Below are positions 12,159 to 49,749 of a stretch of DNA of 64,000 bases, one piece after another. The DNA is from Candidatus Bathyarchaeota archaeon (GTDB lineage: Archaea; Thermoproteota; CALKCG01; B24; DRYS01): positions 29,047-93,046 of the forward strand of contig JAGTQC010000006.1 of NCBI GenBank assembly GCA_018396535.1, in the 5' to 3' direction. The notes below the pieces were generated by a model, which had not been told where the DNA came from, did no database searches, and was given only the letters and a program-made list of their open reading frames with translations. Position 1 is the first letter of the stretch. Every line of letters starts with the position of its first letter. The translations under genes and the position numbers were made by a program.

Positions 12159-12225
12159 AGCCTAACTATAGTCTATCATCGATGAAGTTTATCTATTTTT
12201 CACCAGCTTTATAGTAATCTATAGG

Positions 12226-24804: not shown

Positions 24805-26553
24805 ATGGAGGAGTATCTATCGAGGATCCTATACATAGATCTATCCTCGAAGAGAAGCTGGGTTGAAGATAGGAGTGAGCTCTTCGAGGATAGGATAGGG
24901 GGGCTCGGTGTAGCTGTTAAACTCTATTCCGAGATATGTAAACTAAACTCGGATCCCTTCGATCCTGAAAATCCACTAGTATTCACGGTAGGTCCGCTCA
25001 ACGGTCTATATCCATGCATATCTAAGACTGTAGCCGTCTTTAAATCACCCGTAACTGGTACTTATGGTGAGAGTCATGCTGGTGGGAGACTTTCTATGGC
25101 GATTAGGATGGCTGGATATGGAGCTATAGTGATACTAGGATACTCTGATAAACTTTTACTCATAGATATAGAAGATTCTAAGGTATGCTTTAGAGAGGCT
25201 AAATCCCTCCAGGGTCTTAGTAGCTTAGAAGTCGAGGAGAGGCTTAGAACCCATACTAGGGTTATGGAAAGCATAGTTAGTATAGGTTTAGCCGGGGAGA
25301 GGCTATGCTTCTACGCTTCGGCTAACGTCGATAGATACAACTATTTCGGTAGACTAGGTCTCGGAGCCATACTAGGATCCAAGAATATAAAGGCTTTAAG
25401 GATAAGGGGTAGCGGCTCGATTAAACCTAAAGACGCTGAGAGTTATAAGAAGCTATTCGAGAAGATATATAGAAGGATCGTAGAGACGGATGCTATGGCT
25501 AAATACCACTATACCGGGACACCAGCTAATATAATGGTTCTAAACGAGATAGGCGCCCTCCCGACTAGGAATTTTAGAGAATCTAGGTTTGAGCATGCAG
25601 AAGATATCTCAGGAGAGAGGGTGGGTGAGTTTCTACTCGAGAGGAAGGTTTCATGCCCTCTATGCCCTATAGGATGTATGCATATAGCTAAGCTTAGACT
25701 AGAATTCGCTAAAGGATACGAGTATGAGCCCATAGATATATACTACAACTACGAGTCTATGTATGCTCTAGGTACAAACCTAGGCTTAAAGAAGCCTGAA
25801 GATATACTGAAGCTAATATACACTGCTAACTTCTATGGATTCGATACGATGCTTTTAGGGAATATACTTGCATGGATGACGGAGGCGTACGAATCTGGGT
25901 TGATAAGCGACAGTGATACGAATGGTTTAAAACTTAGCTGGGGGGATATAGATTCGTATATAGAGGCTGTTAGACGTATCGCATATGGTGAAGGCAGCCT
26001 ATACGTATACGCTGCTCAAGGTCTAAAACAGCTAGTAGATATATATGGTGGGAGGGATTATGCTATGCAGATAGCTGGTAACGGTATACCAGGCTATCAT
26101 ACAGGATACGCTTCTATACTAGGCTTCCTAGTTGCTTCACGCCACTCCCACAATAGTAACGCAGGATACGATATAGATCAGCAGGCTTTGAAGAGGAAGC
26201 TTAACGATGAAGAGCTTATCGATAGGATCATAGAAGAGGAGGATTGGCGTAATATACTCGTAAGTCTAGTTGCATGTATGTTCGCTAGGAGGATATATAG
26301 CCCAGATGTAGTCGTAGATGCTCTTAGAACAGTAGGCTTCGAGTATAATCTAGATGATCTTATGGATGTAGGTAGGGATGTATATATCGAGATATACCGT
26401 ATTAAGTCTATCGAAGGATTTGATCCTAGGAAAATCTATATACCTAAAAGGCTATTCGAAACACCATCAGCTTCTGGGATACTATCCGAGGAAAGGTTTA
26501 GAAAGCTCCTAGACATGTATATGGAGAGGAGGTTCAAATCTTCCAGTATTTAG
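24805..26553 (+). CDS. Tungsten-dependent aldehyde:ferredoxin oxidoreductase family protein
   Basis: KSP.TG..GES..GG, GR.G.GA..GSK..KA, LPTRNF, C..CPIGC, YES. Confidence 0.92.
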   Translation: MEEYLSRILYIDLSSKRSWVEDRSELFEDRIGGLGVAVKLYSEICKLNSDPFDPENPLVFTVGPLNGLYPCISKTVAVFKSPVTGTYGESHAGGRLSMAIRMAGYGAIVILGYSDKLLLIDIEDSKVCFREAKSLQGLSSLEVEERLRTHTRVMESIVSIGLAGERLCFYASANVDRYNYFGRLGLGAILGSKNIKALRIRGSGSIKPKDAESYKKLFEKIYRRIVETDAMAKYHYTGTPANIMVLNEIGALPTRNFRESRFEHAEDISGERVGEFLLERKVSCPLCPIGCMHIAKLRLEFAKGYEYEPIDIYYNYESMYALGTNLGLKKPEDILKLIYTANFYGFDTMLLGNILAWMTEAYESGLISDSDTNGLKLSWGDIDSYIEAVRRIAYGEGSLYVYAAQGLKQLVDIYGGRDYAMQIAGNGIPGYHTGYASILGFLVASRHSHNSNAGYDIDQQALKRKLNDEELIDRIIEEEDWRNILVSLVACMFARRIYSPDVVVDALRTVGFEYNLDDLMDVGRDVYIEIYRIKSIEGFDPRKIYIPKRLFETPSASGILSEERFRKLLDMYMERRFKSSSI

Positions 26554-27943
26554 CTAGGAATGCTGGTATATCAGATGAATCCCTAGGCCCTACTAGCACC
26601 TCCCATCCTGTTAGATCTTCTAACTCCCCCTTAAGCCTAGCAGCTAAACCTGGTATGATTATCTTACGATGTGAAACCTTCTCTGAAACCCTATATTCCT
26701 TCATAGCCGAAGCAATCTTCTCAGCTGTAAGCTTACGTCCAGCTACGGATGATTCTACAGATAGCCCCTCGGTATCTACGACGAGGAGGTAGCAGTTAAG
26801 CCTAGCAGATTCTATATCCGATGCTACTGTGAAGTATGTTAAAGCGAAATTCGTAGTTACTAGTAGAGGCGATTTATCATTTGGGGAACCAAACTCTCTA
26901 AGCCCAGGTTCTACACTTACAGGTTTAACAGGATCGGTATACAAGTTCTCTCTAAGTATTAGATTTGGAAGAAGCTGCCATACATCGACTCCATGAATTA
27001 TAACGATATCCGCATACCTTGTTATCATCATAGCTGTCAATACAGCCTCCATCCACTTAGCTTCTTCAGGCTTATCTTTAAACTCTTCATCAACCCATAC
27101 AACGGCAGGTATAGCTAAGATCGGGTAGCCAGATAACCTATCACCCTGCCTACATGCAAGCCATCTCAGGATGGTGAAGCTGTTCACGGTATAAGCTAAA
27201 CCATCACCTATAAACGTACCTGGATCTAACACTATATCGTCTAAACCCTCGCTATTGAGAGCTTTAACTAAACCTCTAAGCTTAGATAAATCCCCAGGAG
27301 CTGATGCAACTACAGGACATCTATACATCTTAGCTAATTCAGCTATATCACGCCAGTTACCCTCTGTAGCAGCGTAGATTAGAGGCCTCCTATCTCTTAT
27401 CCTTAGTAGCGCGGCTTCTAAAACCTCTGGATCAAGGCTACAAAGCACTATAGGTAGATCTGTAAGCTTAGATATCTTAGAAGCTAGGTCCTGGAACCTA
27501 GATGGATCGCCAGATCTACATCTTAAAGCTAACGCGTTAAGCTTAAGCTCCCGCCCTATGTAAGTATACTTGAAATTTTCGATAAACCTCACCCTAGACT
27601 CTAGCTCTGCTTCACCGATATCATCCCAAACATCGATTGCTAGGATAGTCGGATTCATATACCTAAGCTCATGCCTGTGTAGTACGAGTTTACCCCCGAC
27701 TACAGCCTCCCTACCTGGAGGACCAAACCTCACTTCTATAACCGGAGGTCTTAGAATCTCCCTAAGCTGAGCTAAACTATCCCTATACTTCTCCTCCTCG
27801 AATAGAGGTCTACACTCTTCGAGCTTAGCCGTCCTCTCTACCAATTTAGCTGCGAAACCTAGACAGGTAGATATCCCGCATTTACCACAATTAAGTCTAG
27901 GTAGAAGTTTATATATATCCATAGGGCTTATCTTCTTAGCCAT
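26534..27943 (-). CDS. cdhE: ACDS gamma subunit (corrinoid Fe-S protein large subunit)
   Basis: NCG.CG..TC..FA...C, YTDP.KP, TTNFALTYF.V..D, GLSV, GP.DSS. Confidence 0.95.
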   Translation of the reverse strand: MAKKISPMDIYKLLPRLNCGKCGISTCLGFAAKLVERTAKLEECRPLFEEEKYRDSLAQLREILRPPVIEVRFGPPGREAVVGGKLVLHRHELRYMNPTILAIDVWDDIGEAELESRVRFIENFKYTYIGRELKLNALALRCRSGDPSRFQDLASKISKLTDLPIVLCSLDPEVLEAALLRIRDRRPLIYAATEGNWRDIAELAKMYRCPVVASAPGDLSKLRGLVKALNSEGLDDIVLDPGTFIGDGLAYTVNSFTILRWLACRQGDRLSGYPILAIPAVVWVDEEFKDKPEEAKWMEAVLTAMMITRYADIVIIHGVDVWQLLPNLILRENLYTDPVKPVSVEPGLREFGSPNDKSPLLVTTNFALTYFTVASDIESARLNCYLLVVDTEGLSVESSVAGRKLTAEKIASAMKEYRVSEKVSHRKIIIPGLAARLKGELEDLTGWEVLVGPRDSSDIPAFLAKYWKI

Positions 27944-29140
27944 CTATATACCTCCCAGCCAGTCTGGTATTCCCCCAACCGGCTTATCCCATCTACCGTA
28001 GAGCCATGATATAACCTGTTTGACAGTCTTTATCGCTAATGGATGCATCATTATGAATAGATCGCATCCAGCTAGGAGGAGTGTTAAAGCTGTAACAGTC
28101 TCCCATAGAGGACCTCTGACCTCCCTAGGTCCGAGTTCAGGTATCTTAAGCCATGCTTCACGTGCACCCCAAGCATTACTCGTACCAGATAGGATGGGTA
28201 GAGCTAATTCACTATCACCCATAAGACCTGCTATACGTATACGCTCCATAACGGAGAATGCATACTCTATACCATAGCCTAATGGAGCTGATGTTGGATC
28301 GATAACTATACGTTCAGGTGGGAGTATCTGTAGTATAGCTCTATCTAGATCTCTCTGAAGGTTTAGATCTAGAGATGCCCATGCTACTACGTTGTGGCCG
28401 TAACGTTTAGCTGCCTCAGCTATAGGCTTAAACCTATCCTCAGGTGAGGGTATGGAGCTTAGGAGGAGCCTCTCACCTTCGAAGGTAGCTGCAATCTCTA
28501 CTAGAAGCTCTACATCCTTAACAGGATCCCCTGACCCCCCGACCATGATAGGGGAATCGACGGCTTGAAGGATATTCTCAACAGTCTTCACAGCCTCTCT
28601 AATAGGTGTATCCTTTATCGATGGATCAGTACTAGTTAACTCTATGGTAACCATATCCGCGGCGAACTTATCTACATATAGCTTAGCCCATTCAGCAGGA
28701 TCATCCATAGCGTCACCGAACGCATCTCTTAAAGGCTTAGGTAGGGGTAGCTTCCAATCGAATACATCCCCGGAAACCACGGGTGGATTAGGATTTACGG
28801 CTGAGAAACTATAGAAGGGCATGGTAACCTCTCCACCTATAACTATAACCCTACTCCTAGATCCACCTTCAGATTTGGTAGCGCCTATCCTAACCTCAGA
28901 TATACGATTTGTAAAAGCCACCTCCGGTTTAGGAAGCTCCTCTACAAGTTCTACAACCCTAGCTTCCGGCTTAACCGCCTCCATTATAGGTCTAATTATC
29001 GGAGTAACACCCGTCACATCTAGTTGAAGCTCCGAAGCCTCTAGACTAAAATCTTCGAATTCTATCTCCTCAGATTCTGATAGAAGCTTTAAAAGCCATT
29101 CTAGAAAAGACTCTCCTATATCCCTCCTACGCATACTCAA
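27944..29140 (-). CDS. cdhD: ACDS delta subunit (CoFeSP small subunit)
   Basis: GAT..EGGSR, DP.EWA, DPT...LGYGIEY, NAWGAREAW, MMHP. Confidence 0.95.
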   Translation of the reverse strand: MSMRRRDIGESFLEWLLKLLSESEEIEFEDFSLEASELQLDVTGVTPIIRPIMEAVKPEARVVELVEELPKPEVAFTNRISEVRIGATKSEGGSRSRVIVIGGEVTMPFYSFSAVNPNPPVVSGDVFDWKLPLPKPLRDAFGDAMDDPAEWAKLYVDKFAADMVTIELTSTDPSIKDTPIREAVKTVENILQAVDSPIMVGGSGDPVKDVELLVEIAATFEGERLLLSSIPSPEDRFKPIAEAAKRYGHNVVAWASLDLNLQRDLDRAILQILPPERIVIDPTSAPLGYGIEYAFSVMERIRIAGLMGDSELALPILSGTSNAWGAREAWLKIPELGPREVRGPLWETVTALTLLLAGCDLFIMMHPLAIKTVKQVISWLYGRWDKPVGGIPDWLGGI

Positions 29141-30561
29141 CTCTGCTCACCAGTCTTAATCTTCCTAACGATAACCTTCCTAGCATATATCCTAGCATCC
29201 TTGAATGTTATCCTTAAGGATACCCCTGGTCTAGTCGTAGGTATCACAGCTTCAACTGTAGGTGCTGAAACTACCGGTACCTCAGGTTTAGCCTCGGCAA
29301 TCTTAGCCTCCTCAGCTTTAGCTTCGACTACAGGCACTGGTTTAGTCCAGCGTTTAACTACTGGATGACCCTTATCCTCTAGCCACTTCTTAAGTTCATC
29401 TACATTAGAAACATCCTTCTCCGTAGCTATCTTATCCAGTAGTTCATCTGGTACGAAGCCCTTTACCCTCTCCTTAATAGCTGATGGAATCCATACAACC
29501 CTCTCCCATCCGCCATCAGCCTGAAGGAATTTAGGAGATCTAAGATACTCTATGGAAACACCATGGAACCCATCAACTTGTCTACCACCAGCTGTAGCAT
29601 CTGCTAAAGCTGCGAATGTAAGACCATTCACCGTCGGACCTTTAAAGTCTCTATGAACAATACCTATACCATCGACTTCCGGTATATAGAATGCTACACC
29701 CTCAAAGCATCCACAGCTAGTATGAGGGTAGCCGAACATAGTGTAGAGCTGTACACGTTCTATAGCTCCTAATGAGCGGGCTTTCGTAGCCTCGTTCACA
29801 CCTATATACTCACCCCTCACTGGATCTAGTAGCTCACCCTTAGGTATGGGGAATATAGGGCCTTTAGGATCTATACGCGCAGCAGCTCCACAGTCAAACC
29901 AGCTCATAGCTCCACAGTTAGAGTATCTTTGAGGAGTTATCACGCATACATGTGTAGGTGCGAAGCTTTGACATAGGACGCATCCGTAGAATGTATCAAC
30001 TTCCTCATCCCTCAGCCCCCTAGCCCTAGCATCCCTCTTCTCATATACTCTTATAGCTTCCTCCCATATCTCAGCAACTTTATCGGGATCCGTTATGAAG
30101 GTAACCTGCATCTTCTCTATTATCGGAAACTCTGATTTAAATAGACGTATAAGTACGAGGCCTAGATACTTGAAGCTATTAAGCCCCTTATTGTAGCTAG
30201 CTTTACTAAGCCTACACCATATATCATACCTCTGATTTAAATGCATAAACCCCTGTATATAGTTTAGATACTCATGTATACGTCTCTCGAAGACACCTTC
30301 CAGATCCTCTGAAAGCTGACTTCCAGCAACTTCTACATATATACCAAGCCTATAGCTACCCCCCTCCTTAAGCTGATGTATATCCGGGCCTATAACGGAG
30401 ATCCTTCCATCCTCGATCTCCTCTAACGATTTAACTCTAAGAAGCTCAAACTTTTTATCAACCCTAGGTCCTCCAAACTCTACGTACATATCTTCTCTAC
30501 GAATACGCTCCCCCTCATAGGCTATACCTACATCTACAGGTATATCCTGAAACATAGACAT
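29137..30561 (-). CDS. cdhC: ACDS beta subunit (acetyl-CoA synthase, intact A-cluster)
   Basis: CVLCQSFAPTHVC...CGA and PHTSCGCFE (CGC at 29707-29715); Pro/Ala/Glu linker plus C-terminal extension. Confidence 0.96.
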   Translation of the reverse strand: MSMFQDIPVDVGIAYEGERIRREDMYVEFGGPRVDKKFELLRVKSLEEIEDGRISVIGPDIHQLKEGGSYRLGIYVEVAGSQLSEDLEGVFERRIHEYLNYIQGFMHLNQRYDIWCRLSKASYNKGLNSFKYLGLVLIRLFKSEFPIIEKMQVTFITDPDKVAEIWEEAIRVYEKRDARARGLRDEEVDTFYGCVLCQSFAPTHVCVITPQRYSNCGAMSWFDCGAAARIDPKGPIFPIPKGELLDPVRGEYIGVNEATKARSLGAIERVQLYTMFGYPHTSCGCFEGVAFYIPEVDGIGIVHRDFKGPTVNGLTFAALADATAGGRQVDGFHGVSIEYLRSPKFLQADGGWERVVWIPSAIKERVKGFVPDELLDKIATEKDVSNVDELKKWLEDKGHPVVKRWTKPVPVVEAKAEEAKIAEAKPEVPVVSAPTVEAVIPTTRPGVSLRITFKDARIYARKVIVRKIKTGEQS

Positions 30562-30564
30562 AGA

Positions 30565-31113
30565 CTACATCACCCCAAAACTATCTGCAACCTTCTTAAT
30601 AAAGGAATACCATTCACTACCTTTGACATTGGGTAGAGACCAGTATGCATGAGGATGATAGTATGGATCTAAACTAATAGTGGAGATCTTCGGAGCAAAG
30701 TGCTTAAGGCCTGATAGTACGAGCCATAGAGTTATGTATGGGAATCCTATGAAGCCGACTAGATCATATCCTCCAACTCCATCAAAGCCAGTCCAGCTAG
30801 AATCCCTCAACCTATCACCAAGTTCATACACAGATATAGAGGCTACGGTAGGTATACCAACTTCCTCAAGTCTGTAAGCCGTATTTCTAGAAGCTACTAT
30901 AGTGAATAACTTTGTGGAATGGAGGAGACGAATAAGCTCTACAGTATCGACTCCTTCAATCCTATCTAGAGCTTTAGATCCTGCGACTAGGAGTCTACGA
31001 TTAGCCCTCCTCAATATAGCTACCAGGGATTCAGGTCTAGGTATGATAGCGGCTTTCCTAGGTCCAGGTATCTCGGCTGTAGCCCAAGGCTCGGGGAATC
31101 TATACGTAGACAC
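30565..31113 (-). CDS. cdhB: ACDS epsilon subunit
   Basis: EPW..AEIPGP.KA, W.GFDG.G.YDL, LKHFA, YHP.A..S. GTG start at 31113 follows an SD GAGGTGA. Confidence 0.92.
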   Translation of the reverse strand: MSTYRFPEPWATAEIPGPRKAAIIPRPESLVAILRRANRRLLVAGSKALDRIEGVDTVELIRLLHSTKLFTIVASRNTAYRLEEVGIPTVASISVYELGDRLRDSSWTGFDGVGGYDLVGFIGFPYITLWLVLSGLKHFAPKISTISLDPYYHPHAYWSLPNVKGSEWYSFIKKVADSFGVM

Positions 31114-31120
31114 CGTAGCG

Positions 31121-33457
31121 TCACCTCTTCCTGACAAGCCTAGGTAGAAGTGTTGGATCTGGTATAGGCTTCTCACTCCACCCCTTACTCTTGAGAAACT
31201 CTAAAACCTCGGATTTCAGGGTTAAGGGTATATCAGCCTCCTTCCTCACATATAGGTGTAGATCATCTGGTAGACAGCCGAGATACTTCTTACTCAGATC
31301 TATATAGTGTGAAAGCTTTATAGCTCTCCCTTTACTCGTATCATTAGGTCTCATACATAGCTTAGCTATCATAACTATAGCCTCTTCCTTACTCTCAGCA
31401 GCTACGAATAAATGCTCCGGAGCTGGACCAGAATAGACTCTATCACCAGTCCTCGCATCGTATACATACCATGAATTCTCATCATCCCTACGACCTAGTA
31501 GGAGTCTCCTATACTTAGCCCCATGAGGGCCTACGATAACTGGTACACCTAGACGCCAGAATCCTGCAGCTATAGCTGCAGCCTTCTGACTCATAGCGCC
31601 CCAGGCTATACCTACAGCTCCAACCCTATTCAATATATAGTCGGCTATTTCCTCATAGTTAGCTCTAAGATTCCTCTTAGCGAATATAGCTGCAATCTTT
31701 ATAGCTGCACCAGCTATATGGCTATTCGATATGCATGAACCTACATTCACTAATCCACCTGCATCGAATGTTCCAGTATACTTCTCATATAGAGATCTAC
31801 CCTCATCATCCTTAGCCATAGCTAACGTCATAGCAGCGCATCCAGAAGCGACCACTATATAGTTTCTCTTCAAGAATTCCTCAGCTATCTCCACTATCTC
31901 TCGCCCACCATTATAGTAGTTAGAGCATCCTACAAAGGCTATAACACCAGGTATTTCACCGAAAACTATAGGTCTACCGACATTCCTTATCTCTACATCC
32001 TGTATAGGACCTCTACCAACCCTAATTTTAAACCTCTCATTTCTCCATATCTTTCTAGCACCTTGAATTATAACGCTATGTACAGGTATTCTCTGAGGGC
32101 AAGTCTCCTCGCATTTACCACACCCTATACAAATTTCGTATAGATATGCGAGGGCATTGAAATCTCCTTTAGAAGCTGCATTAATAGCTTCAGCGATGGG
32201 TAGATTATTAGGGCATGCTCTCTCACAGAATCTGCAACCTCTACACTTAGAAGCTAGAGTTTTCAAATCCTCATCTGATGGCAGGGATCTAATCTTCTGT
32301 CTATACGGGAATATCTTCAAAGCAGTCTTAACAGCTAGCTCACCCACTCTATCAGGATCTAGGAATAGTATACCCGGCATAGACCCGCTTACAAGCTTCT
32401 CTACTATAGAATCTATAGGTTCACTAGTAGCATCTGGTAGACCCATACACTTCTCTATAGAAGTAGCGATAACAGGAGCCTTTACTCTAGCAGCTTCTAG
32501 TAGTATATCTGCTCTTATACACTGCTCATCGACTACTACTACATCTGGTAGACCACTTCTAACGAATCTAAGCTGCCACGATAAGGGTCCTACTATCTTA
32601 GCCATAGGATTATATCTGGATACATCATGTGCTGTACAACATATACCCGCAACCTCTACGGCTCCATACATCCTATTCCTAACTAGATAGTCTACTATAG
32701 ATGCAGCCGATGGAACGTTATGACCTACGACGAGTATAACAGGTTTACTCTGATCTATAGCAGCTAGACCTATCTCTACAAGAGGGGCTTCAGGATCACC
32801 CTTCGGGTATCCTAAAGCTACTATCTGAGCTAGATCTGCTATCTCTAAAGCTACATGATCCAGCATACCAGCATGGAATACTTTAGATTCAAAATCGATC
32901 CAGCTATCTTCTTGACCAGTATGCGTAGCAGCTAGTAGAGAGATTATCTGTTCCTCTACATAGCTTAAAGCATCCTCAAGATCACCTAAGATCCTAGGTT
33001 TTATACCGCATACAAGCCTGATTATAGGCGCCTCCACATATATGTTACCGCCTAGATCTATAGGATGATCCCTACCATACTTTGATACAAGGTATTCGAG
33101 TAGGTGTCTAGCGTGAGCTGCATGAGTCGCTGCGCCTATACAAGCTGCTAGTAGGACTATACGGGATTGCTGTGCAGGCATATCTATACCGCATGCTCCC
33201 CTCTTACCTGATGTTAGATCACATTTACCCATCGTGCATAGGCAGCATAGATCGCAGAATGGCATATAGAATGGCTTATACCTCTCTAATAGTATATGAT
33301 CCCACCGTCTTAGATCGGTTATCGATGGGAAGGGTGTAGGTCCAAGAGGCTCCTCCCACTCCTCTAGTATCCTTCCGAAAGATATTTCAAGCCCTTCAGC
33401 TTGAAATATATCTGATACCAGCTTCTTAATTCTAAGATTAAAATCCCTTCTAGACAT
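31121..33457 (-). CDS. cdhA: ACDS alpha subunit (archaeal Ni-CO dehydrogenase)
   Basis: CDLCCLCT.G.C, GHNV, GICCT, DEQC, two ferredoxin motifs, GCS, SGC, GSC C-cluster ligands. Confidence 0.97.
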   Translation of the reverse strand: MSRRDFNLRIKKLVSDIFQAEGLEISFGRILEEWEEPLGPTPFPSITDLRRWDHILLERYKPFYMPFCDLCCLCTMGKCDLTSGKRGACGIDMPAQQSRIVLLAACIGAATHAAHARHLLEYLVSKYGRDHPIDLGGNIYVEAPIIRLVCGIKPRILGDLEDALSYVEEQIISLLAATHTGQEDSWIDFESKVFHAGMLDHVALEIADLAQIVALGYPKGDPEAPLVEIGLAAIDQSKPVILVVGHNVPSAASIVDYLVRNRMYGAVEVAGICCTAHDVSRYNPMAKIVGPLSWQLRFVRSGLPDVVVVDEQCIRADILLEAARVKAPVIATSIEKCMGLPDATSEPIDSIVEKLVSGSMPGILFLDPDRVGELAVKTALKIFPYRQKIRSLPSDEDLKTLASKCRGCRFCERACPNNLPIAEAINAASKGDFNALAYLYEICIGCGKCEETCPQRIPVHSVIIQGARKIWRNERFKIRVGRGPIQDVEIRNVGRPIVFGEIPGVIAFVGCSNYYNGGREIVEIAEEFLKRNYIVVASGCAAMTLAMAKDDEGRSLYEKYTGTFDAGGLVNVGSCISNSHIAGAAIKIAAIFAKRNLRANYEEIADYILNRVGAVGIAWGAMSQKAAAIAAGFWRLGVPVIVGPHGAKYRRLLLGRRDDENSWYVYDARTGDRVYSGPAPEHLFVAAESKEEAIVMIAKLCMRPNDTSKGRAIKLSHYIDLSKKYLGCLPDDLHLYVRKEADIPLTLKSEVLEFLKSKGWSEKPIPDPTLLPRLVRKR

Positions 33458-33574: not shown

Positions 33575-34348
33575 TTGAAGCGTAAAGGATTCGTCATATC
33601 TGTATCAGGTAAGGGTGGCGTAGGTAAAACACTCCTATCAGCCCTACTCCTTAGAACATATCTAGATGAAACAGATAAGACTATACTCATGGTTGACGGT
33701 GATCCAGCTACTAATCTACCTGAAGTATTAGGAGTAGAGATTAAGGGTACTGTAGCATATATAGCTGCTAAACTCAAAGATGATATACAGATGGGTAGGA
33801 TAAGCTACGATGCTAGTAAGAGAGAGATGCTGGAGGGATGGATATATGAGATACTAGTGGAGAATCCTAGATTCGATCTGCTAGCTATGGGTAGAGGTGA
33901 AGGTGAGGGCTGCTACTGTAGCGTTAACTATATGCTTACACTAATACTAACTAACCTCATAGCTAACTACGATGTAACGATAATGGATATGGAGGCAGGG
34001 TTGGAGCATATAAGTAGGAGAGTTGATAGCGATGTGGATTTGATGCTCATAGTTACTGATAGATCACGTATGGGTTTGAAGACGGCTGCTAGGATAAAGG
34101 AAGTAGCTGAGGAGGTTCACGTAGATATTAAACGTATGGTACTCATAGGTAACCTACTAGAGGAGGAGGATGAACATATAATTAGAGATTACGCGAATAG
34201 CATAGGCTTAGAGTATGGCGGATACATACCGTACGATGAGAATGTATCCCTATATAATATGAAGGGTATACCTATACTTAAGCTACCAAACAATAGCCCC
34301 TCTCTCCTAGCTGTTAAATCTATAGCTAGAAGGTTATCCATACTTTAG
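33575..34348 (+). CDS. cooC: CooC/AcsF nickel-insertion ATPase
   Basis: GKGGVGKT, D.DP..NL, GEGCYC, DMEAGLEH.SR. Confidence 0.92.
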   Translation: MKRKGFVISVSGKGGVGKTLLSALLLRTYLDETDKTILMVDGDPATNLPEVLGVEIKGTVAYIAAKLKDDIQMGRISYDASKREMLEGWIYEILVENPRFDLLAMGRGEGEGCYCSVNYMLTLILTNLIANYDVTIMDMEAGLEHISRRVDSDVDLMLIVTDRSRMGLKTAARIKEVAEEVHVDIKRMVLIGNLLEEEDEHIIRDYANSIGLEYGGYIPYDENVSLYNMKGIPILKLPNNSPSLLAVKSIARRLSIL

Positions 34349-35683
34349 GGATTTGATTAATATTGGAAGATCTTTAGCTTTAACAGGTCCTACTATAATG
34401 TTAAACCCCAGGGTTTCTAATTCAGGTTTTATACTCGAAGCTAAACCTGGGATGATTATAGGTACTCTATCTATATCTACTCTATCTCTATAAGCTTGGA
34501 GAGCTTCGGCTATCTGTCTAGCTGTAAACTTACCACCACCTATAGCTGAAGCTACAGATAATCCGCCAGTATCGATTACTAGAATCCAGCACCCTATACC
34601 TGAAGCTTCGAGTATTCTCCTAACTATATCGAAGGTTAAAGCATAATTGGATGTGACAACTATAGGTGCTGATCGTGAAATCGATCCGATACTATATATC
34701 CCTGGATTCACTATCCTAGGTCTCCTAGGATCGGTATAGATAGATTGTTTAAAGATCAGTAGGCCCTCGATGAACACCCTACTCATCGACCTGGGCAAGA
34801 TAACTATCGACGAGTATCTAAGAAGCGATGCGATCGATGCAGCTAAACCTTCATAACTATCGGAAATATCCTTTAGATCGACTAGTATAGGATAACTAAA
34901 TCTTTTATCACCTTCTAAAGCCCTCTTCCTTATACCTAAAGTATACCTTATAAGTTTACCAATGCCATGGTAGCGTATACCTAGGATAATCTTCTCTATA
35001 CCTGCATCCTCAATCCTAGCTGTAAGTTCACCTAGTGTATCGATATCTTTTGCTAAAAGTACGATGGGATAATCCTTCACAGATACTACATCCATAAACT
35101 TCTCCAAGGATATCAGCGATGTATCTATCATGATAGCAGGCTTCTCGCCCTCCAACAACCTTAAAGCCGATAGATACGCATCAAAGTTATCAGCTTTCAA
35201 TATTAGAGGTTTACATGTATATTTACGAAAGATACGTAACCTATCCTCCATAGATTCCTGGGTTACACCGCTCATATCTACGAGGTATAGATCTATAGAT
35301 AACTTCAAACCCATACGTTCCATTACAATCGAATCTATACGTGAAACTACACTTCTAACTTCATACATATTCGACAATAAATCTATGGTATATGCTAACC
35401 TAGCCTCCCTTCTAAACCCTCCATCATGCCTGAATAACCCCTCCTCCCCTCCTACCTCTATCGTAGAAGAAAGCGAAGATATGGGTATGGGTCTCACGGG
35501 GGGCATAATTAACGCGGATATTTTAGCTTTAGATTGAGGTGTAAGGAATGGACATAAATCTGGTGTTGCTTCACCACTAGTAAGCTTAGCTGCAAAGGCT
35601 AGACAAGTAGTTACACCGCATCTACCGCAGTTCCTTCTAGGTAGAAGCATGTATATCTGTAGAGGCTGAACTTTCCTGGACAT
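34334..35683 (-). CDS. Divergent second CoFeSP large subunit (AcsC/CdhE-like)
   Basis: NCGRCG..TCLAFA..CP, FRH, IYTDP, TSNYALT, DT.GLSV, IIPG, VGP motifs kept; TIM barrel diverged. Confidence 0.85.
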   Translation of the reverse strand: MSRKVQPLQIYMLLPRRNCGRCGVTTCLAFAAKLTSGEATPDLCPFLTPQSKAKISALIMPPVRPIPISSLSSTIEVGGEEGLFRHDGGFRREARLAYTIDLLSNMYEVRSVVSRIDSIVMERMGLKLSIDLYLVDMSGVTQESMEDRLRIFRKYTCKPLILKADNFDAYLSALRLLEGEKPAIMIDTSLISLEKFMDVVSVKDYPIVLLAKDIDTLGELTARIEDAGIEKIILGIRYHGIGKLIRYTLGIRKRALEGDKRFSYPILVDLKDISDSYEGLAASIASLLRYSSIVILPRSMSRVFIEGLLIFKQSIYTDPRRPRIVNPGIYSIGSISRSAPIVVTSNYALTFDIVRRILEASGIGCWILVIDTGGLSVASAIGGGKFTARQIAEALQAYRDRVDIDRVPIIIPGLASSIKPELETLGFNIIVGPVKAKDLPILIKSLKYG

Positions 35684-35686
35684 AGA

Positions 35687-36550
35687 TTATACCTCCCTTC
35701 TAGATAATTCACCTATCAACCTCCTAGCGTATAGCAGAACCTCTGGATCTAGGAGAACGATTATATCAACCGAAGATAGGATGTAAGCTGAAGCCGTTAT
35801 CATCTCCCAGACCATACCCCTAGATATTGATAGGTCGTCTAGGTATACTTCAAATGAATCCCAAGCCTCCCATGTGAAAGCAACTATAGGTATAGATAGG
35901 ATTGGATCCCCCCTACCATATAGTAGCTTAGCTTGTTCTATCAGATTATATGTATCTTCAAGCCCTAGGCCTAGACCTGTAGATGCGATATCTAGAGTGA
36001 TACGTTCGATCGGGAAGCCTGTATCTACTATGAGTTGTATGAGTTGCTTAGCTTGATTTATATCCGTAGTAGATCTAGCTAGGAGGTTCTGTGTATAGAT
36101 CGATGCTAAAGCTGTATATGTCCTATAGTTACCCATATCCGCTGGACCGATTATAAGCTCATACTCTCCAGCCTTCTCGACTATACCTTCAAGAATTGAG
36201 CGGCTTGAAGCCGAGTCTGCAGCTAGGATTATCGAAGGCTTTCCCACCCCATCTAGGATCGATAGGGATAAATCCACGTAGCGGTCAAAGCTACCAGATT
36301 CTACACCTTCAGGAATGATGATGCATATTAGATCAGGGTTAAACTTGGTAGAGATATCTATTGCTAACTCATCAACTCTATCTATTTTTAAACCTCTAGC
36401 TATGTATATACTTCTATGTATATCATCTATATCTAACGGTATCGCTAAGGCTAGTAATGGAGGATTCCAATCTGACATATCTAGTGAGAGCTTATTAGCC
36501 TTAACCTCAATCATATAGGAGCGCATCGATCTGAGGATCATACTTCTCAT
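35687..36550 (-). CDS. Divergent, N-terminally short CoFeSP small subunit (AcsD/CdhD-like)
   Basis: NY, DIN.AKQL, GLG.GLE.TY...E, GD..L..P, AW, WE..TA. Confidence 0.78.
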   Translation of the reverse strand: MRSMILRSMRSYMIEVKANKLSLDMSDWNPPLLALAIPLDIDDIHRSIYIARGLKIDRVDELAIDISTKFNPDLICIIIPEGVESGSFDRYVDLSLSILDGVGKPSIILAADSASSRSILEGIVEKAGEYELIIGPADMGNYRTYTALASIYTQNLLARSTTDINQAKQLIQLIVDTGFPIERITLDIASTGLGLGLEDTYNLIEQAKLLYGRGDPILSIPIVAFTWEAWDSFEVYLDDLSISRGMVWEMITASAYILSSVDIIVLLDPEVLLYARRLIGELSRREV

Positions 36551-36554
36551 ACAC

Positions 36555-38627
36555 CTAGAACATCAATACTGGTGGAAGCTCTAGGACTGGATGCTTAACC
36601 TTGATAAGCCATTCTAGAAGCTCGTTTAACGTTCTAGCAGTATTCTCATCAGCTATCTTCTCAGGTAGATCTGGGACGCCTTCTTCAGCACATCTATTCC
36701 TAAACTCTTTACCTAGAGTCTCTTTGAGAGAACTAGGCATCCAAACTATACGTTTCACTCCATCCTCAGCTCTGAAGTATTTACGACTTAGAATCCATCT
36801 ACGTGAATGCCCTAGGAATCCAGGCATCTGTAAACCACTAATCATACCTGCGAGTGTGGAGAAGGATAGACCTATAGGTGTTTCGCCTCTATAACTATAG
36901 TCTACTACCATTATACCGTTACACTCAGGTATGAAGACTGATATACATTCAAAGCTAAGCGTGGATGTGGTAGGGCTAGAAACTAGGCTGTATAACGATG
37001 TTCTATTGATAGCTCCATGGGTAAGCTGTGATATAACTTTATTAACACCATCCCACTCACCTCTAAATACATCTATAGGCTTACCCCTGTCTATAGGTCT
37101 GATACCTGAGGCTTCGCCTCTAAGTTCGTAGGCAATCTCTGCATCGATATAAGTTACCGTACCGCAAAGGCCTGGTCTTTCAGGTGTGATTACGCATACA
37201 TGATTGGATAGGAAGCTTTGACATATAGTACATGCATAGTATCTCCCTACATCTTCATCTGTTAAGCCTACCAATCTGCGATCTCTCTCATCGTATATCG
37301 TCTTAGCTATCTCTAGAAGCTGAGTAACTAAAGCTTCATCAGTATATATCTTAACCTGTAACCTATCTATTATATCACCGTACAGTCTCTTTAAACCTAC
37401 ATAAAGCATCAAACCTAGATGTCTAAGCCTAAAACCTTTCTCCACACCTCTTCTAGTTATCCTTATCCAACCAGAATATCTCTGCCCTACATGCCAAGTT
37501 TCTTCACCGTAATTTATCACTCTATGTATACTTCTCTCTATTATGGGTTCATACTCCTTCTTCATCCTAGCTCCCGCGACTTCTACTAGTATACCAATAG
37601 GTTGAATAGATCCTTCAGTCATGGAATCTATATCAGATCCTACAACTTCTACACTTCCATCCATAACATCCTCCAGCTTACGGGATACTACAAGCTCAAA
37701 GTATGGCTTTATATTTCCAAACTCTACATAGACATCCCTATCCCTAACACTCTTCCCTTCATACACGCTACTGAAACCTATCGGAAGCTCCTTCTCTAGG
37801 ATCTCTAATATACCTAGCCTACTACATATCGTTGATAACACATCCTCGATTCTATCGACATGGATAACACTAGTGCCATAGCCTAGTCCAACCGATGTAA
37901 CAATACATACACCTAGATCTGAGATTGCGTCAAGAAGCATAGATTCGATATGCTTTGATATGGTAAGCAGAGCTACCCCCATACGTATCCTTTTACCTAG
38001 ATACTCATGTATCTCTTTACGCTCAATCGGATGACCTGAGGTCGATAGAAGTCTTATAGCTAAACCTATAGAGTATACTAGCCCATCGACAGGATCAGTA
38101 GATATGTGCTTTATCAGCCCCCTTCTACCGTCTATTACAAGTCCTCCCTCGAATATTTCTTGAAAACGATTGGATACGACGAATATCACGAAACCTAGAC
38201 GTTGAGCTTTAGATAAAAGTTTCTCTAAGGTTAACGGATCATCCCCTACAACTACGATTAACCCTGGTGATATACCTGAGATAAGCTTTAACGCATAGGT
38301 TTTAGCTTCGTTAATATTCATGGGATTTAGAGACGGCTTAGATAATATAGAGTTTAATAGGATTCTCAACTCGTATATAGATAGGGTAGCTAAACTCTTA
38401 ATCGATGGATCGCTGCTCATTAATAATTCGGCTAACTCATCTATTACCTCCTTGAGATCTTCTAGACTAGATATATTCCTGCCTAGAAGAAGAGAAGATA
38501 TGATAGGGGGAAAATAATTAATGTACATCTTCATGGATTCTTCATACTTACTTCTAGCAATGTTGAATAGCTTTGCTAATTCATCTACGAATTGGATCGG
38601 TGTAGATTTTACATCTTCAGATTTCAA
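36555..38627 (-). CDS. Divergent bacterial-type acetyl-CoA synthase (AcsB-like) lacking the Ni-binding Cys-Gly-Cys
   Basis: 690 aa with AcsB-type N-terminal domain; INYGE..WH.GQR; CTICQSF..HVC..TPERPGLCG; PTTSTLSFEC where TSCGCFE is expected; RIVWMP. Confidence 0.85.
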   Translation of the reverse strand: MKSEDVKSTPIQFVDELAKLFNIARSKYEESMKMYINYFPPIISSLLLGRNISSLEDLKEVIDELAELLMSSDPSIKSLATLSIYELRILLNSILSKPSLNPMNINEAKTYALKLISGISPGLIVVVGDDPLTLEKLLSKAQRLGFVIFVVSNRFQEIFEGGLVIDGRRGLIKHISTDPVDGLVYSIGLAIRLLSTSGHPIERKEIHEYLGKRIRMGVALLTISKHIESMLLDAISDLGVCIVTSVGLGYGTSVIHVDRIEDVLSTICSRLGILEILEKELPIGFSSVYEGKSVRDRDVYVEFGNIKPYFELVVSRKLEDVMDGSVEVVGSDIDSMTEGSIQPIGILVEVAGARMKKEYEPIIERSIHRVINYGEETWHVGQRYSGWIRITRRGVEKGFRLRHLGLMLYVGLKRLYGDIIDRLQVKIYTDEALVTQLLEIAKTIYDERDRRLVGLTDEDVGRYYACTICQSFLSNHVCVITPERPGLCGTVTYIDAEIAYELRGEASGIRPIDRGKPIDVFRGEWDGVNKVISQLTHGAINRTSLYSLVSSPTTSTLSFECISVFIPECNGIMVVDYSYRGETPIGLSFSTLAGMISGLQMPGFLGHSRRWILSRKYFRAEDGVKRIVWMPSSLKETLGKEFRNRCAEEGVPDLPEKIADENTARTLNELLEWLIKVKHPVLELPPVLMF

Positions 38628-38716
38628 TTACTGATGGTGACTATATAGGCATACATAAATGTAAATATTGCTTATATAAAGTCTAGGATTATACGTATAT
38701 GGTGGCAATCTTGCAT

Positions 38717-39517
38717 CTACTGATGATATTGCATCGATGAAATTTCTATTTTAAATCTAACATTCGATCTGGTTAGCTCTTCTAATCCCTTAAGGCATGA
38801 AAGCATACCTTTAAGCGTTGACGATACGATATTCTCAGTAAACCTATTCAATTGAATAGGCTTCCCATCGAAGAATACCTCTACCCTAGAGCCCCTACTT
38901 AATGTACATATGTACGGCTCCACTTCCCCTCTGAGTATAGCTAAAGCGAAACTTCTACAATCGGTAAAACCACATCTACCGCAATCGGATCCTCCAAGGA
39001 TACGTGTAATTCTATCCAAGGCTTCATCCACCAACATTTTCGCTAAAAGATTAAGATCATCTATAGAGAATACAGGTTTATCCACGTTTATTCCATGTAT
39101 ATCCACCCCTTTCTTACATACTACCACAGCTAATAGATCCTTGAAAACGGTATTGCAGCTGGTATAGCCATCTGGAATACAGAGTATCTTAGGGTAATTA
39201 GCTTCTTTGAATCCTTCTATTAGCGTAAACGATGTGGAAGGTAGTAGATCCATGTATTCTTCTACACTGTCTCCAGTATTTGGTAAGAAAAGTGCCACCT
39301 CACCTCTAGATATAGCTAGAGATGCTCTAGCACCTGCAGCTCTATGCCTATAGGTATCTTTACCTATAACATCTATAGGATGGGAGCAATGCTTAACCGT
39401 AGCTACACTATAGCCTCTAGAAACCAGTATCTTTGTAAGTTCCTCTATAACCTTCGTCTTACCAGACCCCTTACCATAACCTATTATACATACGGTTAAC
39501 CCAGTCCATCTAGACAC
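38717..39517 (-). CDS. mobB: Molybdopterin-guanine dinucleotide biosynthesis protein B with C-terminal Fe-S domain
   Basis: SGKT, VKH, GKDT.RH..AGA, IEGFK, DCG.CG..C..FA. Confidence 0.88.
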   Translation of the reverse strand: MSRWTGLTVCIIGYGKGSGKTKVIEELTKILVSRGYSVATVKHCSHPIDVIGKDTYRHRAAGARASLAISRGEVALFLPNTGDSVEEYMDLLPSTSFTLIEGFKEANYPKILCIPDGYTSCNTVFKDLLAVVVCKKGVDIHGINVDKPVFSIDDLNLLAKMLVDEALDRITRILGGSDCGRCGFTDCRSFALAILRGEVEPYICTLSRGSRVEVFFDGKPIQLNRFTENIVSSTLKGMLSCLKGLEELTRSNVRFKIEISSMQYHQ

Positions 39518-40509
39518 TATATCTCCCCCTTCAACCCTCTGACAGCTGTAGCCATACCGCCGTATAAGCCTATATCTGCACCTAAAGGTGTTATAGCTAT
39601 GCGTGGAATCCTATTAACTGTATACATACCAATCCATCTCTCTATGTAGGGTAGAACTAGGTCAGAGTTATAGAGAGCTATAGATCCTCCTATCGTTATA
39701 AGCTCAGGATCGTAGACGTTAACTATAGATGCGAAACCCATAGCGTTTATCTTACCTACTTCTTCTACTATCATACTGGAGAATCTATCCTTACTTCTAG
39801 CTAGATCGTATACAAGCTTAGATGTAATATGATCGATACAACCGTTAGTCTCTCTAAAGAGTAGACTTGAACTCCATAATTCTCTTCGATTCTCAGCTAG
39901 GAGCTTCGCATACTTCGGTATACCTGAACCAGAACAGTATGCCTCCCAGTGACCTCTACCTCCACATCCACAGATAAGTCTTCCATCTATATCGACGACT
40001 ATATGGCCTATCTCATGAGCATTTCCATCCTTTCCTTTTAATAGGTTTCCATCTACTATGGCTCCTCCACCTATACCAGTACTAATAGTTACGTATACAA
40101 GGTTTCCTACACCTACACCGAGACCGAATGTATATTCAGCTAGAACAGCTGCGCTAGCATCATTAAGTATGAATACAGGTGTATCGAATTCATCTTCTAT
40201 AGGCTTCTTTAAAGGTATTCTTTCGATGCGTTTTTCCATAGCTAGATTAGCTACGTTGAATAATTCACCCTTCCTCATATCCATAGGCCCTATCGTAGCT
40301 ATACCTATAGCTGATAGGTCTTTCACCCCGTATCTGCTCATAATGATTCTAGATAACTTGATGACTTGGAGGGCTAAATCTAGGCTATCCTTGAGCTTAA
40401 CGGTGCGTTCTGTGATCTTATCGATTAGTTTTAATCCATCTGTTAAAGCTACCCTTATATTGGTAGCGCCTATGTCTACTGCGATTATAGGTTTATCTAT
40501 ACATGTCAT
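39517..40509 (-). CDS. ROK family sugar kinase (glucokinase-like)
   Basis: DIGAT, NDA, TGIGGG, EIGH, CGCG..GHWEAYCSG. Confidence 0.92.
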   Translation of the reverse strand: MTCIDKPIIAVDIGATNIRVALTDGLKLIDKITERTVKLKDSLDLALQVIKLSRIIMSRYGVKDLSAIGIATIGPMDMRKGELFNVANLAMEKRIERIPLKKPIEDEFDTPVFILNDASAAVLAEYTFGLGVGVGNLVYVTISTGIGGGAIVDGNLLKGKDGNAHEIGHIVVDIDGRLICGCGGRGHWEAYCSGSGIPKYAKLLAENRRELWSSSLLFRETNGCIDHITSKLVYDLARSKDRFSSMIVEEVGKINAMGFASIVNVYDPELITIGGSIALYNSDLVLPYIERWIGMYTVNRIPRIAITPLGADIGLYGGMATAVRGLKGEI

Positions 40510-48843: not shown

Positions 48844-49749
48844 CTAGATTCTACCTATCCTATACCTAGGATGCGTTCGATCAACTCTGGATCCATCTTC
48901 TAGTTTAACCTGGCTTAAAGCTGCATCGACCATAGCTACAGCGGGGAATACTAGCGTAGAGTATTCTATAGGCCCATATAGTATGAAATCAGCTCCAGCT
49001 GCTATAGCTAGGATAGAAGCTGAAACACCGCATAGATCTCTAACCTCCCGACCCATGCTTCTACGTAGACTCTTCCAAGAAGCGACGGCGTTATGAGCGC
49101 CACAGCCGGATGGGTATCCTATTCTATCTTTGATAGACCATATAGCCATTGATGCGGATCCTAGCGAAGGAACATCGAGGACTCCTGTATCTATGAGGAT
49201 CTTATCGATACCATAACCTTTAAGCTTCTCTACAAATTTATCAGCTGCTTCGACTCTATGTCTCCAACCGATTATACCTGGACCGAATGTGAGGAGAATG
49301 GTTGCTGATACATCTGCCTTATTTATAGCTTCCAACTCATCATCTTTACTATGAGGATTTACGGAATTATATATTATTCTATCTGCTATACCTGCTTCAC
49401 GGACATAATCTAAGCCAGCTATCCTAACCTTATCTGTTATACCTCCCAGCAGTATAGGTATACTCGTATTATCAGATACATACTCTAGATATCTACGCAT
49501 AGCTTCCGGTGTGGATGCTACGACATCTACCATACATGGGTTGCCTGTTCTCTGAGAGAGTTCTAGCTGATTATCTAAGAGACGCTTAGCCTCATCCTCC
49601 TTGAATAATCCCCTAGACTCATCTAACACGATCGAATGTTTATGGTAGAATATGGATCCTATAAGGACTACGGGTCTAAGCCCAGGTTCTCCCCCAACTT
49701 TTACACCATATATATCGAATATCTTCTGTTTACACGATAATCTCCACAT
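48844..49749 (-). CDS. mtrH: MtrH-like methyl-H4MPT:corrinoid methyltransferase, stand-alone
   Basis: Q..F.I.GVKVGG.PG..P.VLIGSIFY..H, IYNS, G.P.GCG.HN, GADF.LYGPIE, HP. Confidence 0.88.
   Translation of the reverse strand: MWRLSCKQKIFDIYGVKVGGEPGLRPVVLIGSIFYHKHSIVLDESRGLFKEDEAKRLLDNQLELSQRTGNPCMVDVVASTPEAMRRYLEYVSDNTSIPILLGGITDKVRIAGLDYVREAGIADRIIYNSVNPHSKDDELEAINKADVSATILLTFGPGIIGWRHRVEAADKFVEKLKGYGIDKILIDTGVLDVPSLGSASMAIWSIKDRIGYPSGCGAHNAVASWKSLRRSMGREVRDLCGVSASILAIAAGADFILYGPIEYSTLVFPAVAMVDAALSQVKLEDGSRVDRTHPRYRIGRI

Follow-up and report, generated by a model that had tools for sequence, protein, structure and literature searches.

The sequence analysed here (the window) is a 64,000-nucleotide stretch of a Candidatus Bathyarchaeota archaeon genome (assembly GCA_018396535.1, contig JAGTQC010000006.1, positions 29,047 to 93,046). 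Its minus strand encodes a paralogue of AcsB, the bacterial-type acetyl-CoA synthase (ACS), in which the nickel-binding Cys-Gly-Cys motif reads Thr-Leu-Ser. The genes for the two subunits of a diverged corrinoid Fe-S protein (CFeSP or CoFeSP) follow at distances of 4 and 3 bases, and a complete gene set for the archaeal acetyl-CoA decarbonylase/synthase (ACDS) lies close by. We mark the three diverged module proteins of the window with an asterisk (AcsB*, AcsD* and AcsC*) and give residue equivalents in the numbering of Moorella AcsB. The coordinates are collected in Table 1.

Table 1. Features of the acsB* locus, in coordinates of the window.
Feature	Position	Strand	Basis or remark
AcsB*, paralogue (690 aa) of bacterial-type acetyl-CoA synthase with three domains and no Ni-binding Cys-Gly-Cys	36555..38627	-	Open reading frame, Pfam, alignment with 1OAO
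Codons ACG CTT AGC, Thr556-Leu557-Ser558 in place of A-cluster Cys595-Gly596-Cys597	36954..36962	-	Alignments, codon reading
Codons of the retained [4Fe-4S] cysteines C466, C469, C478 and C488, and of Phe472 (Moorella F512)	37164..37232	-	Alignments, invariant
AcsD*, 287-aa strongly diverged CFeSP small subunit, 4 bases 3' of AcsB*	35687..36550	-	Pfam CdhD, 1.6e-14
AcsC*, 449-aa CFeSP large subunit paralogue with Fe-S domain, TIM barrel and B12 domain	34334..35683	-	Pfam FeS and CdhD
CooC/AcsF-type P-loop ATPase, convergent with acsC*, divergent from cdhA	33575..34348	+	53% identical to the ATPase at the same position in genome G013; dN/dS 0.05
Complete archaeal cdhA-cdhB-cdhC-cdhD-cdhE (ACDS), CdhC with intact Cys-Gly-Cys	26534..33457	-	Pfam, alignment
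Intergenic region 5' of acsB*, 89 bases, with A+T-rich TATA-like boxes TTTATATAA and CCTATATAG	38628..38716	-	Read directly
MobB and Fe-S-domain protein, module membership uncertain	38717..39517	-	Pfam, NCBIfam
ROK-family gene, preceding the MobB and Fe-S gene with a one-base overlap	39517..40509	-	Pfam

The acsB* open reading frame starts with TTG and runs through 690 codons with zero internal stops. Its product scores far above the cut-offs of the Pfam families CdhC (PF03598, 8e-51, 172 bits) and ACS_CODH_B_C (PF19436, 2.5e-87, 293 bits), and Moorella AcsB (1OAO) aligns with AcsB* residues 109-688 at an E value of 3e-125. Judged by these sequence matches, AcsB* is a member of the ACS/CdhC protein superfamily. 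The cysteines C466, C469, C478 and C488 correspond to Moorella C506, C509, C518 and C528 and are invariant in both homologue alignments. An earlier note on this DNA had described the 690-residue frame as fully open and the four [4Fe-4S] cysteines as present, and the reading frame and the 1OAO alignment agree with it. It had also placed Thr-Leu-Ser at the position of Cys-Gly-Cys, as is seen here in the context TSTLSFE, compared with TSCGCFE in the neighbouring cdhC (29137..30561, 6 kb away) and in all solved ACS structures. The cdhC codons for this triplet are TGT GGA TGC. The first two codons of acsB* differ from them at all three bases, but the third (AGC against TGC) differs at one, and for it the statement of the note that each codon differs by more than one base does not hold. 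Nevertheless, Thr-Leu-Ser is not a single-base error, as the note concluded, since all eleven relatives described below have the motif.

The loss of Cys-Gly-Cys is part of a wider change. We defined 174 columns conserved at a level of at least 85% in 98 canonical three-domain AcsB proteins; the AcsB* clade retains 110 and has changed 53. The changed sites gather around the A-cluster and the CO alcove: besides C595, G596 and C597 they include A513 (now Leu), P514 (Ser), G145 (Ala) and F229 (Ser). The Ala after C528 has become Thr, an invariant Arg has become Tyr577, and an invariant Gly has become Ser597. The CO alcove of ACS is formed by G145, I146, V149, F229 and F512, and replacement of Phe229 by Ala in a canonical enzyme abolishes autotrophic growth (PMC11321310). 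In AcsB* only F512 of these is kept; V149 is replaced by Ile and I146 by Leu, and F229 is Ser in all eight clade members aligned, and the hydrophobic alcove is broken. The residues gained are mainly hydroxyl-bearing or charged and each is fixed in 8/8 members, and no new conserved Cys or His is found among these clade-specific substitutions. The invariance of the replacements and the gain of hydroxyl groups suggest that the site has been remodelled and is under constraint, and that it is not an empty scar.

The remainder of the protein is better preserved, in particular the middle domain, with 36 columns kept and 9 changed. In the ACS of Clostridium autoethanogenum, acetyl-CoA is contacted by the adenine-stacking Trp405, by His386 and by Gly399 (bioRxiv 10.1101/2024.08.05.606187). 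All three are conserved in AcsB* (W387, H368 and G381), as are the equivalents of Moorella W418 and R429 (W378 and R389). The conservation of the two sets of residues suggests that AcsB* still holds a [4Fe-4S] cluster and has probably kept the ability to bind CoA or an acyl-CoA. The AlphaFold2 model of AcsB* has a mean predicted local distance difference test (pLDDT) score of 89. In Foldseek comparisons it aligns over its full length, N-terminal domain included, to 1OAO, 7ZKJ and 6YTT with template-modelling (TM) scores of up to 0.73; the last two domains (A2-A3) alone give a TM score of 0.91 to 3GIT, on the target's length. According to the model, AcsB* thus has the three-domain A1-A2-A3 fold of ACS. 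The diverged N-terminal domain is no longer detected by Pfam CODH_A_N.

Family models place AcsB* ambiguously. It fails the full-length NCBIfam equivalog NF040764 (568.5 bits against a cut-off of 800), which is passed at 858.5 bits by a Cys-Gly-Cys-bearing relative from another genome of the same order (G013, described below). On the other hand, it passes the shorter cdhC model TIGR00316 (365.8 against 355.95), which means that annotation pipelines will name it an ACS beta subunit; one source, the Joint Genome Institute (JGI), already labels a clade member in this way. At the sequence level AcsB* fails three defining features of catalytic ACS, namely Cys-Gly-Cys, the alcove and the full-length equivalog cut-off.

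With both thiolates gone and Leu at the position of the Gly, AcsB* cannot ligate the distal Ni, and the equivalent of Cys509 is the sole remaining ligand for the proximal metal. Could AcsB* still be an acetyl-CoA synthase that binds Ni through alternative ligands? What speaks for this is that it has retained the bridging Cys509 as well as F512 and the CoA-site residues. However, there are no new Cys or His candidates among the clade-specific substitutions, Leu has taken the place of the Gly that binds the distal Ni through its backbone amide, Phe229 of the alcove is now Ser, and the protein falls short of the equivalog score that its Cys-Gly-Cys-bearing relative reaches. We regard this explanation as highly improbable. 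Nor is there a CO supply of the bacterial kind. The genome (1.41 Mb, 93% complete) contains two ACS-family genes, cdhC and acsB*, and a single Prismane-family/carbon monoxide dehydrogenase (CODH) gene, the archaeal cdhA; an AcsA/CooS-type CODH, the CO-tunnel partner of bacterial ACS, was not found in it at this level of completeness. The lack of Ni ligands, the broken alcove and the lack of a feeding CODH of the right type together make it very unlikely, on present sequence evidence, that AcsB* synthesizes or cleaves acetyl-CoA by the known mechanism, in accord with the view of the earlier note that acetyl-CoA synthesis should be impossible.

To place AcsB* among its homologues, relatives were sought in 5.8 billion proteins, and the motif region was scanned in the 120 matches listed. 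Nine database proteins, 56-91% identical to AcsB*, all read TSTLSFE, TSTFSFE or TSTLSFD. Two more species of the same GTDB genus carry acsB*, with Thr-Phe-Ser and Thr-Leu-Ser, giving a clade of twelve members including the AcsB* of the window. Thr-Leu/Phe-Ser is therefore found in 11/11 relatives, with synonymous variation at all three codons (ACG/ACT, CTT/TTA and AGC/AGT). Among the 120 matches listed, all the more distant ones (at most 49% identity) in which the motif was captured read Cys-Gly-Cys; about a dozen were truncated or fell outside the pattern. In a FastTree phylogeny the Thr-Leu-Ser proteins are monophyletic, with a long stem and short internal branches. Their sister group, inside archaeal AcsB, is formed by the Cys-Gly-Cys-bearing proteins of G013 and P0011/12/15. 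Three GTDB genomes hold the module with Thr-Leu/Phe-Ser, and acsB* was found in no other genome among 16 in the class and 400 sampled in the phylum.

Selection was estimated as the ratio of nonsynonymous to synonymous substitution rates (dN/dS) by the NG86 method, comparing the window with the syntenic contig L025, whose AcsB* is 91% identical, and in wider pairs. Between the window and L025 the ratio is 0.16 for AcsB*, 0.16 for AcsD*, 0.24 for AcsC*, 0.05 for CdhC, 0.05 for the CooC-like ATPase and 0.08 for CdhA. Seven acsB* genes give 20 informative pairs, and in all of these it lies between 0.14 and 0.21, even at dS >1.7, and the further ranges are 0.16-0.26 for AcsD* and 0.24-0.27 for AcsC*. 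By domain, AcsB* gives 0.17-0.34 for the N-terminal, 0.11-0.12 for the middle and 0.10-0.14 for the C-terminal domain, which formerly housed the A-cluster. The frames are intact in 12/12 clade members. Purifying selection thus acts on AcsB*, at about one third of its strength on CdhC.

The earlier note had left two readings of the gene, a repurposed, selected Fe-S protein or a slowly decaying paralogue, and had proposed a search for a conserved clade without Cys-Gly-Cys and a dN/dS below 1 as tests. The monophyletic clade, with Thr-Leu/Phe-Ser in all twelve members, and ratios well below 1 favour the former. A functionless paralogue, redundant beside the archaeal ACDS, would fit the complete loss of the module from most genomes of the order and a rate about three times that of CdhC. 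It does not fit ratios of 0.14-0.21 at high dS, which show purifying selection, twelve intact frames, a former A-cluster domain that is the most constrained of the three, or Thr-Leu-Ser residues held through synonymous codon change. We reject decay, to which we would give hardly any weight.

The other two proteins of the triad resemble the subunits of CFeSP to different degrees. AcsC* matches the large subunit 2H9A_A over its full length (1.3e-57) with the four Fe-S cysteines kept and Ser at the position of Thr374, and scores 329.9 with NF003195, against a cut-off of 306. Its Fe-S domain keeps 12 of 15 conserved columns; in the B12 domain 23 of 35 columns conserved in canonical proteins are kept and 12 changed. 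The best solved match of AcsD* is the Moorella CFeSP small subunit (4DJD_D, 1.8e-27), and it scores 54 bits with Pfam CdhD. We also considered AcsC* as an HgcA-like protein and rejected this, since it scores 84 bits against an HgcA corrinoid cut-off of 275 and has no cap-helix Cys. The corrinoid Fe-S protein fold has been re-used for chemistry other than acetyl-CoA synthesis in mercury methylation by HgcA/HgcB; the B12 domain of AcsC* resembles that of HgcA below threshold, but AcsC* keeps the full architecture of a CFeSP large subunit.

In the solved structure of ACS with CoFeSP, A1 and A3 receive the small subunit, and A3 also receives the Fe-S domain of the large one (bioRxiv 10.1101/2024.08.05.606187). 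Docking of this kind would explain why the N-terminal domain of AcsB* remains under selection with no bacterial CODH to bind. The earlier note had suggested structure prediction with the adjacent AcsC- and AcsD-like proteins. We predicted the complex of AcsB* residues 276-690 (A2-A3) with the large subunit AcsC* only. The score was 0.57, with 0.00 for the best of three controls; contact agreement between runs was at least 53% and the pLDDT of the partner at least 80. Of 80 solved complexes 58 reach the mark used, as do 2 of 110 mismatched pairs; among those that reach it, 7 of the 80 and both mismatches score no higher than 0.60. The pair passes, but the predicted binding lends weak support. 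A like complex (9FZY) is already solved, so the pass may mirror that likeness. The solved complex is held mainly by the small subunit on A1/A3. We infer that AcsB* forms a complex with AcsC* and AcsD*.

The order acsB*-acsD*-acsC* is preserved in 5/5 independent genomic contexts, including the most divergent lineage. After the triad, four of these have the gene for the convergent CooC-type ATPase and a full cdhABCDE set; beside the triad of L002, the most divergent, there are neither cooC nor cdh genes. The origin of the triad is indicated by genome G013, whose AcsB, 41-44% identical, bears Cys-Gly-Cys. The layout there is acsB-acsD-acsC with a convergent cooC, as in the window, with strong family scores, and it lies on a contig other than that of cdhC. 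Between the two genomes identity falls from 65% for CdhC and 53% for CooC to 41% for AcsB, 32% for AcsC and 27% for AcsD, and this gradient indicates that the whole module accelerated together. AcsB* thus heads a co-diverged three-gene module descended from a Cys-Gly-Cys-bearing module of the same gene order. The simplest history is that the order once held both the archaeal ACDS and an AcsB-CFeSP module lacking CODH, that most lineages lost the module and that one kept it intact. In the genus of the window, again most simply, the Ni site was lost and the three proteins then changed together, to settle later under renewed constraint.

This arrangement bears on the possibility that AcsB*, with AcsC* and AcsD*, is an accessory, scaffold or assembly subunit with no reaction of its own, which docks on or regulates CdhABCDE or aids cluster maturation by the CooC-type ATPase. 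The triad lies directly beside cdhABCDE and the cooC-like gene in four contexts out of five, 3/3 GTDB genomes with the module have cdhC, and the adjoining CooC-like ATPase is strongly constrained, all of which speaks for such a subunit. The triad of L002, however, stands apart from cooC and cdh genes, and the ancestor-like module of G013 is on a different contig from cdhC, from which we conclude that the adjacency is secondary. What is more, the N-terminal domains of bacterial AcsB dock CooS/AcsA-type CODH, of which the genome has none, and not the archaeal CdhA. An accessory role for the ACDS is thus doubtful, although worth bearing in mind.

Another explanation assigns electron transfer to AcsB*: its [4Fe-4S] cluster, exposed at the place where Ni meets cobalt, would reduce the Co(II) of AcsC* or CdhE to Co(I). 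AcsB* retains, under constraint, the ligands of the cluster and both terminal domains, which in the solved complex touch the small subunit and the Fe-S domain of the corrinoid protein, and Co lies there within 6.7 A of the proximal Ni (bioRxiv 10.1101/2024.08.05.606187). Against this, the genome already has an activator of the RACo/RamA type (PF14574, 2e-94; a 627-aa frame at G000:C10:46623-47396, L032, on a contig other than that of the cdh and acs genes), AcsC* has an Fe-S domain of its own, and the conserved CoA-site residues would be left unexplained. We consider reactivation of Co(II) improbable.

The explanation that we favour, with a probability of about 0.6, is that AcsB* is an Fe-S subunit without nickel, maintained by selection, which partners its own corrinoid protein and does not make acetyl-CoA. 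As it can no longer assemble the Ni-Ni part of the A-cluster, it would hold a plain [4Fe-4S] cluster and would form one subunit of a separate three-protein module, docking AcsD* and AcsC* as ACS docks CFeSP. Without nickel and the alcove, methyl and CO would not be accepted, and acetyl-CoA would be made by the adjacent cdhABCDE. As to the reaction, we can only speculate that the module carries out a corrinoid-linked handling of methyl or acyl groups, or a gating step, tied to CoA or acetyl-CoA in the hydroxyl-rich pocket beside the cluster. Two stand-alone MtrH homologues are encoded in this non-methanogen genome, one in the window (48844..49749, minus strand) and one at G000:C1:190432-191298. 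They are candidates for methyl transfer between tetrahydromethanopterin (H4MPT) and a corrinoid protein, and MtrH is a possible link from the module to methyl-H4MPT. A pterin-binding methyltransferase (Pterin_bind) gene was not found in the genome, nor, at 93% completeness, was a methionine synthase of the MetE/MesB type (Meth_synt_2), and a methionine-synthase-linked role for the module is not supported here.

Several observations weigh against a maintained function of this kind. The ratios of 0.16-0.27 in the module, against 0.05 in CdhC, amount to roughly threefold faster evolution and hence to relaxed constraint. The clade is narrow, being limited to one GTDB genus and one unplaced lineage, and the module is wholly gone from most sister genomes of the order, so it is dispensable. 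AcsD* falls far below every NCBIfam cut-off (100 against 280). The TIM barrel of AcsC* keeps just 13 of 30 conserved positions, several acidic residues being among the 17 lost, and the corrinoid partner may therefore itself be impaired.

A more specific proposal, which we put forward tentatively and think less probable than not by some way, is that the trio is a previously unrecognised corrinoid-dependent enzyme in which the nickel-free ACS shell presents a CoA-linked substrate to the cobalt of its own corrinoid protein, at the remodelled, hydroxyl-rich pocket next to the [4Fe-4S] cluster. Attack of Co(I) on a thioester and methyl transfer to or from a thiol would be candidate reactions. If this were true, the many other ACS homologues without Cys-Gly-Cys, in bacteria and archaea, would be unrecognised related enzymes rather than relics.

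Such homologues are common. Of the representatives of clusters at 50% identity, 112 span the A-cluster columns, and 59 of these keep the four [4Fe-4S] cysteines and lack Cys-Gly-Cys, among them P0126, P0142, P0144, P0163, P0172, P0173, P0208 and P0221. The replacements include SSL, SGY, SSS, FGG, CSC and CRC. Many have neither cysteine (for example SSL, SGY, FGG), and conservative variants such as Cys-Ser-Cys might still bind Ni. Chloroflexota, Omnitrophota and Eubacteriaceae are among the sources of these proteins, which occupy several separate positions in the tree; most lack a name, are called hypothetical or carry the automatic label acetyl-CoA synthase. As far as sequences can tell, the ACS family has lost Cys-Gly-Cys repeatedly while the Fe-S cysteines were kept. 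Omnitrophota P0126 (Ser-Gly-Tyr) and Chloroflexota P0144 (Ser-Ser-Leu), for example, share the Fe-S cysteines and the loss with AcsB* but represent independent lineages. AcsB* is set apart from these homologues by its archaeal origin, the CoA-site residues kept, its own co-diverged corrinoid protein, its position beside an intact ACDS, and the survival of the ancestral Cys-Gly-Cys state in a sister genome.

With the AcsB of Moorella thermoacetica (1OAO/1MJG), Carboxydothermus hydrogenoformans (1RU3/7ZKJ) and Clostridium autoethanogenum (6YTT/9FZY/9G7I), AcsB* has in common the fold, the Cys quartet, F512, the CoA-contact residues and adjoining genes for a corrinoid Fe-S protein. It differs from them in Thr-Leu-Ser, in the changes of F229 to Ser and G145 to Ala, in an N-terminal domain beyond the reach of CODH_A_N, and in having no CooS/AcsA-type CODH. 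The Cys-Gly-Cys-bearing archaeal AcsB proteins (G013, P0011-P0016), its sister clade, likewise have no bacterial CODH partner and co-exist with archaeal cdh genes, but they score above the family cut-offs and have retained both F229 and Cys-Gly-Cys, whereas all three proteins of the AcsB* module are sharply diverged. The AcsB-CFeSP cassettes without CODH in Methanomicrobiales are, we assume, further Cys-Gly-Cys-bearing archaeal modules like that of G013, and the incomplete Wood-Ljungdahl pathway of Dehalococcoides mccartyi is presumably a bacterial analogue. AcsB in Bathyarchaeota and in other archaea has already been published, in a 2026 preprint that does not mention loss of the Ni site (PMC13370988). 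Our literature searches, which returned general ACS phylogenies, found no published Ni-less ACS paralogue.

The Wood-Ljungdahl pathway has acetyl-CoA synthase as its signature enzyme, and metabolic reconstructions of uncultured microbes use the gene for this enzyme as a marker. AcsB* illustrates a risk in such annotation, being a folded, selected homologue that passes the cdhC equivalog model yet lacks the ligands of the catalytic nickel. The Wood-Ljungdahl call in this genome survives because a true ACDS adjoins; where a homologue of this kind is the only ACS copy in a genome, the call would fail. The 59 of 112 clusters without Cys-Gly-Cys suggest that a considerable range of unstudied functions surrounds one of the oldest enzymes. 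With the ancestral state available in a sister genome and a corrinoid protein that has diverged in step, comparison and biochemistry are straightforward to set up.

The remaining observations concern the surroundings of the triad and of its relatives. The 89-base region upstream of acsB*, with its TATA-like boxes, is possibly a promoter of its own. The MobB/ROK gene pair was considered as a fixed part of the module and rejected as unproven, its distance to the triad ranging from 0.1 kb to >9 kb: the pair is adjacent in the window and in L025, 1.6 kb away in L002 and 8.8 kb away in L001, and it was not found within 9 kb of the triad in L003/L004. In L002, 3' of the triad, a gene resembling transporters of the major facilitator superfamily (MFS) is broken into several short frames (11900-13142), possibly as a pseudogene or through an assembly error.

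In the canonical module of G013 a second CooC/NifH-like ATPase is encoded directly upstream of acsB (L037 10327-11139, plus strand); its best match in the genome of the window (G000:C1:10690-11439, 50% identical) is on another contig and not beside acsB*. P0011 (708 aa), the nearest Cys-Gly-Cys-bearing relative among the matches listed, is a stand-alone AcsB with no adjoining CFeSP genes (L026 / L027 3910-10127), and its gene lies about 2 kb downstream of a divergent pair of genes for a URO-D (MtaA-like) protein and a B12-binding protein. The cdhC match of the sister species G009 (L021, G009:C3:16417-17649) has one in-frame TAG inside a 659-aa open frame; a sequencing error, a gene boundary and other causes are all conceivable. 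In the window itself, the cdhB frame listed (30565-31176, minus strand, 203 aa, GTG start) shares 56 bases with the end of cdhA. Since orthologues have been called with 180-183 aa, the true start of cdhB is probably further downstream than that of the frame listed.

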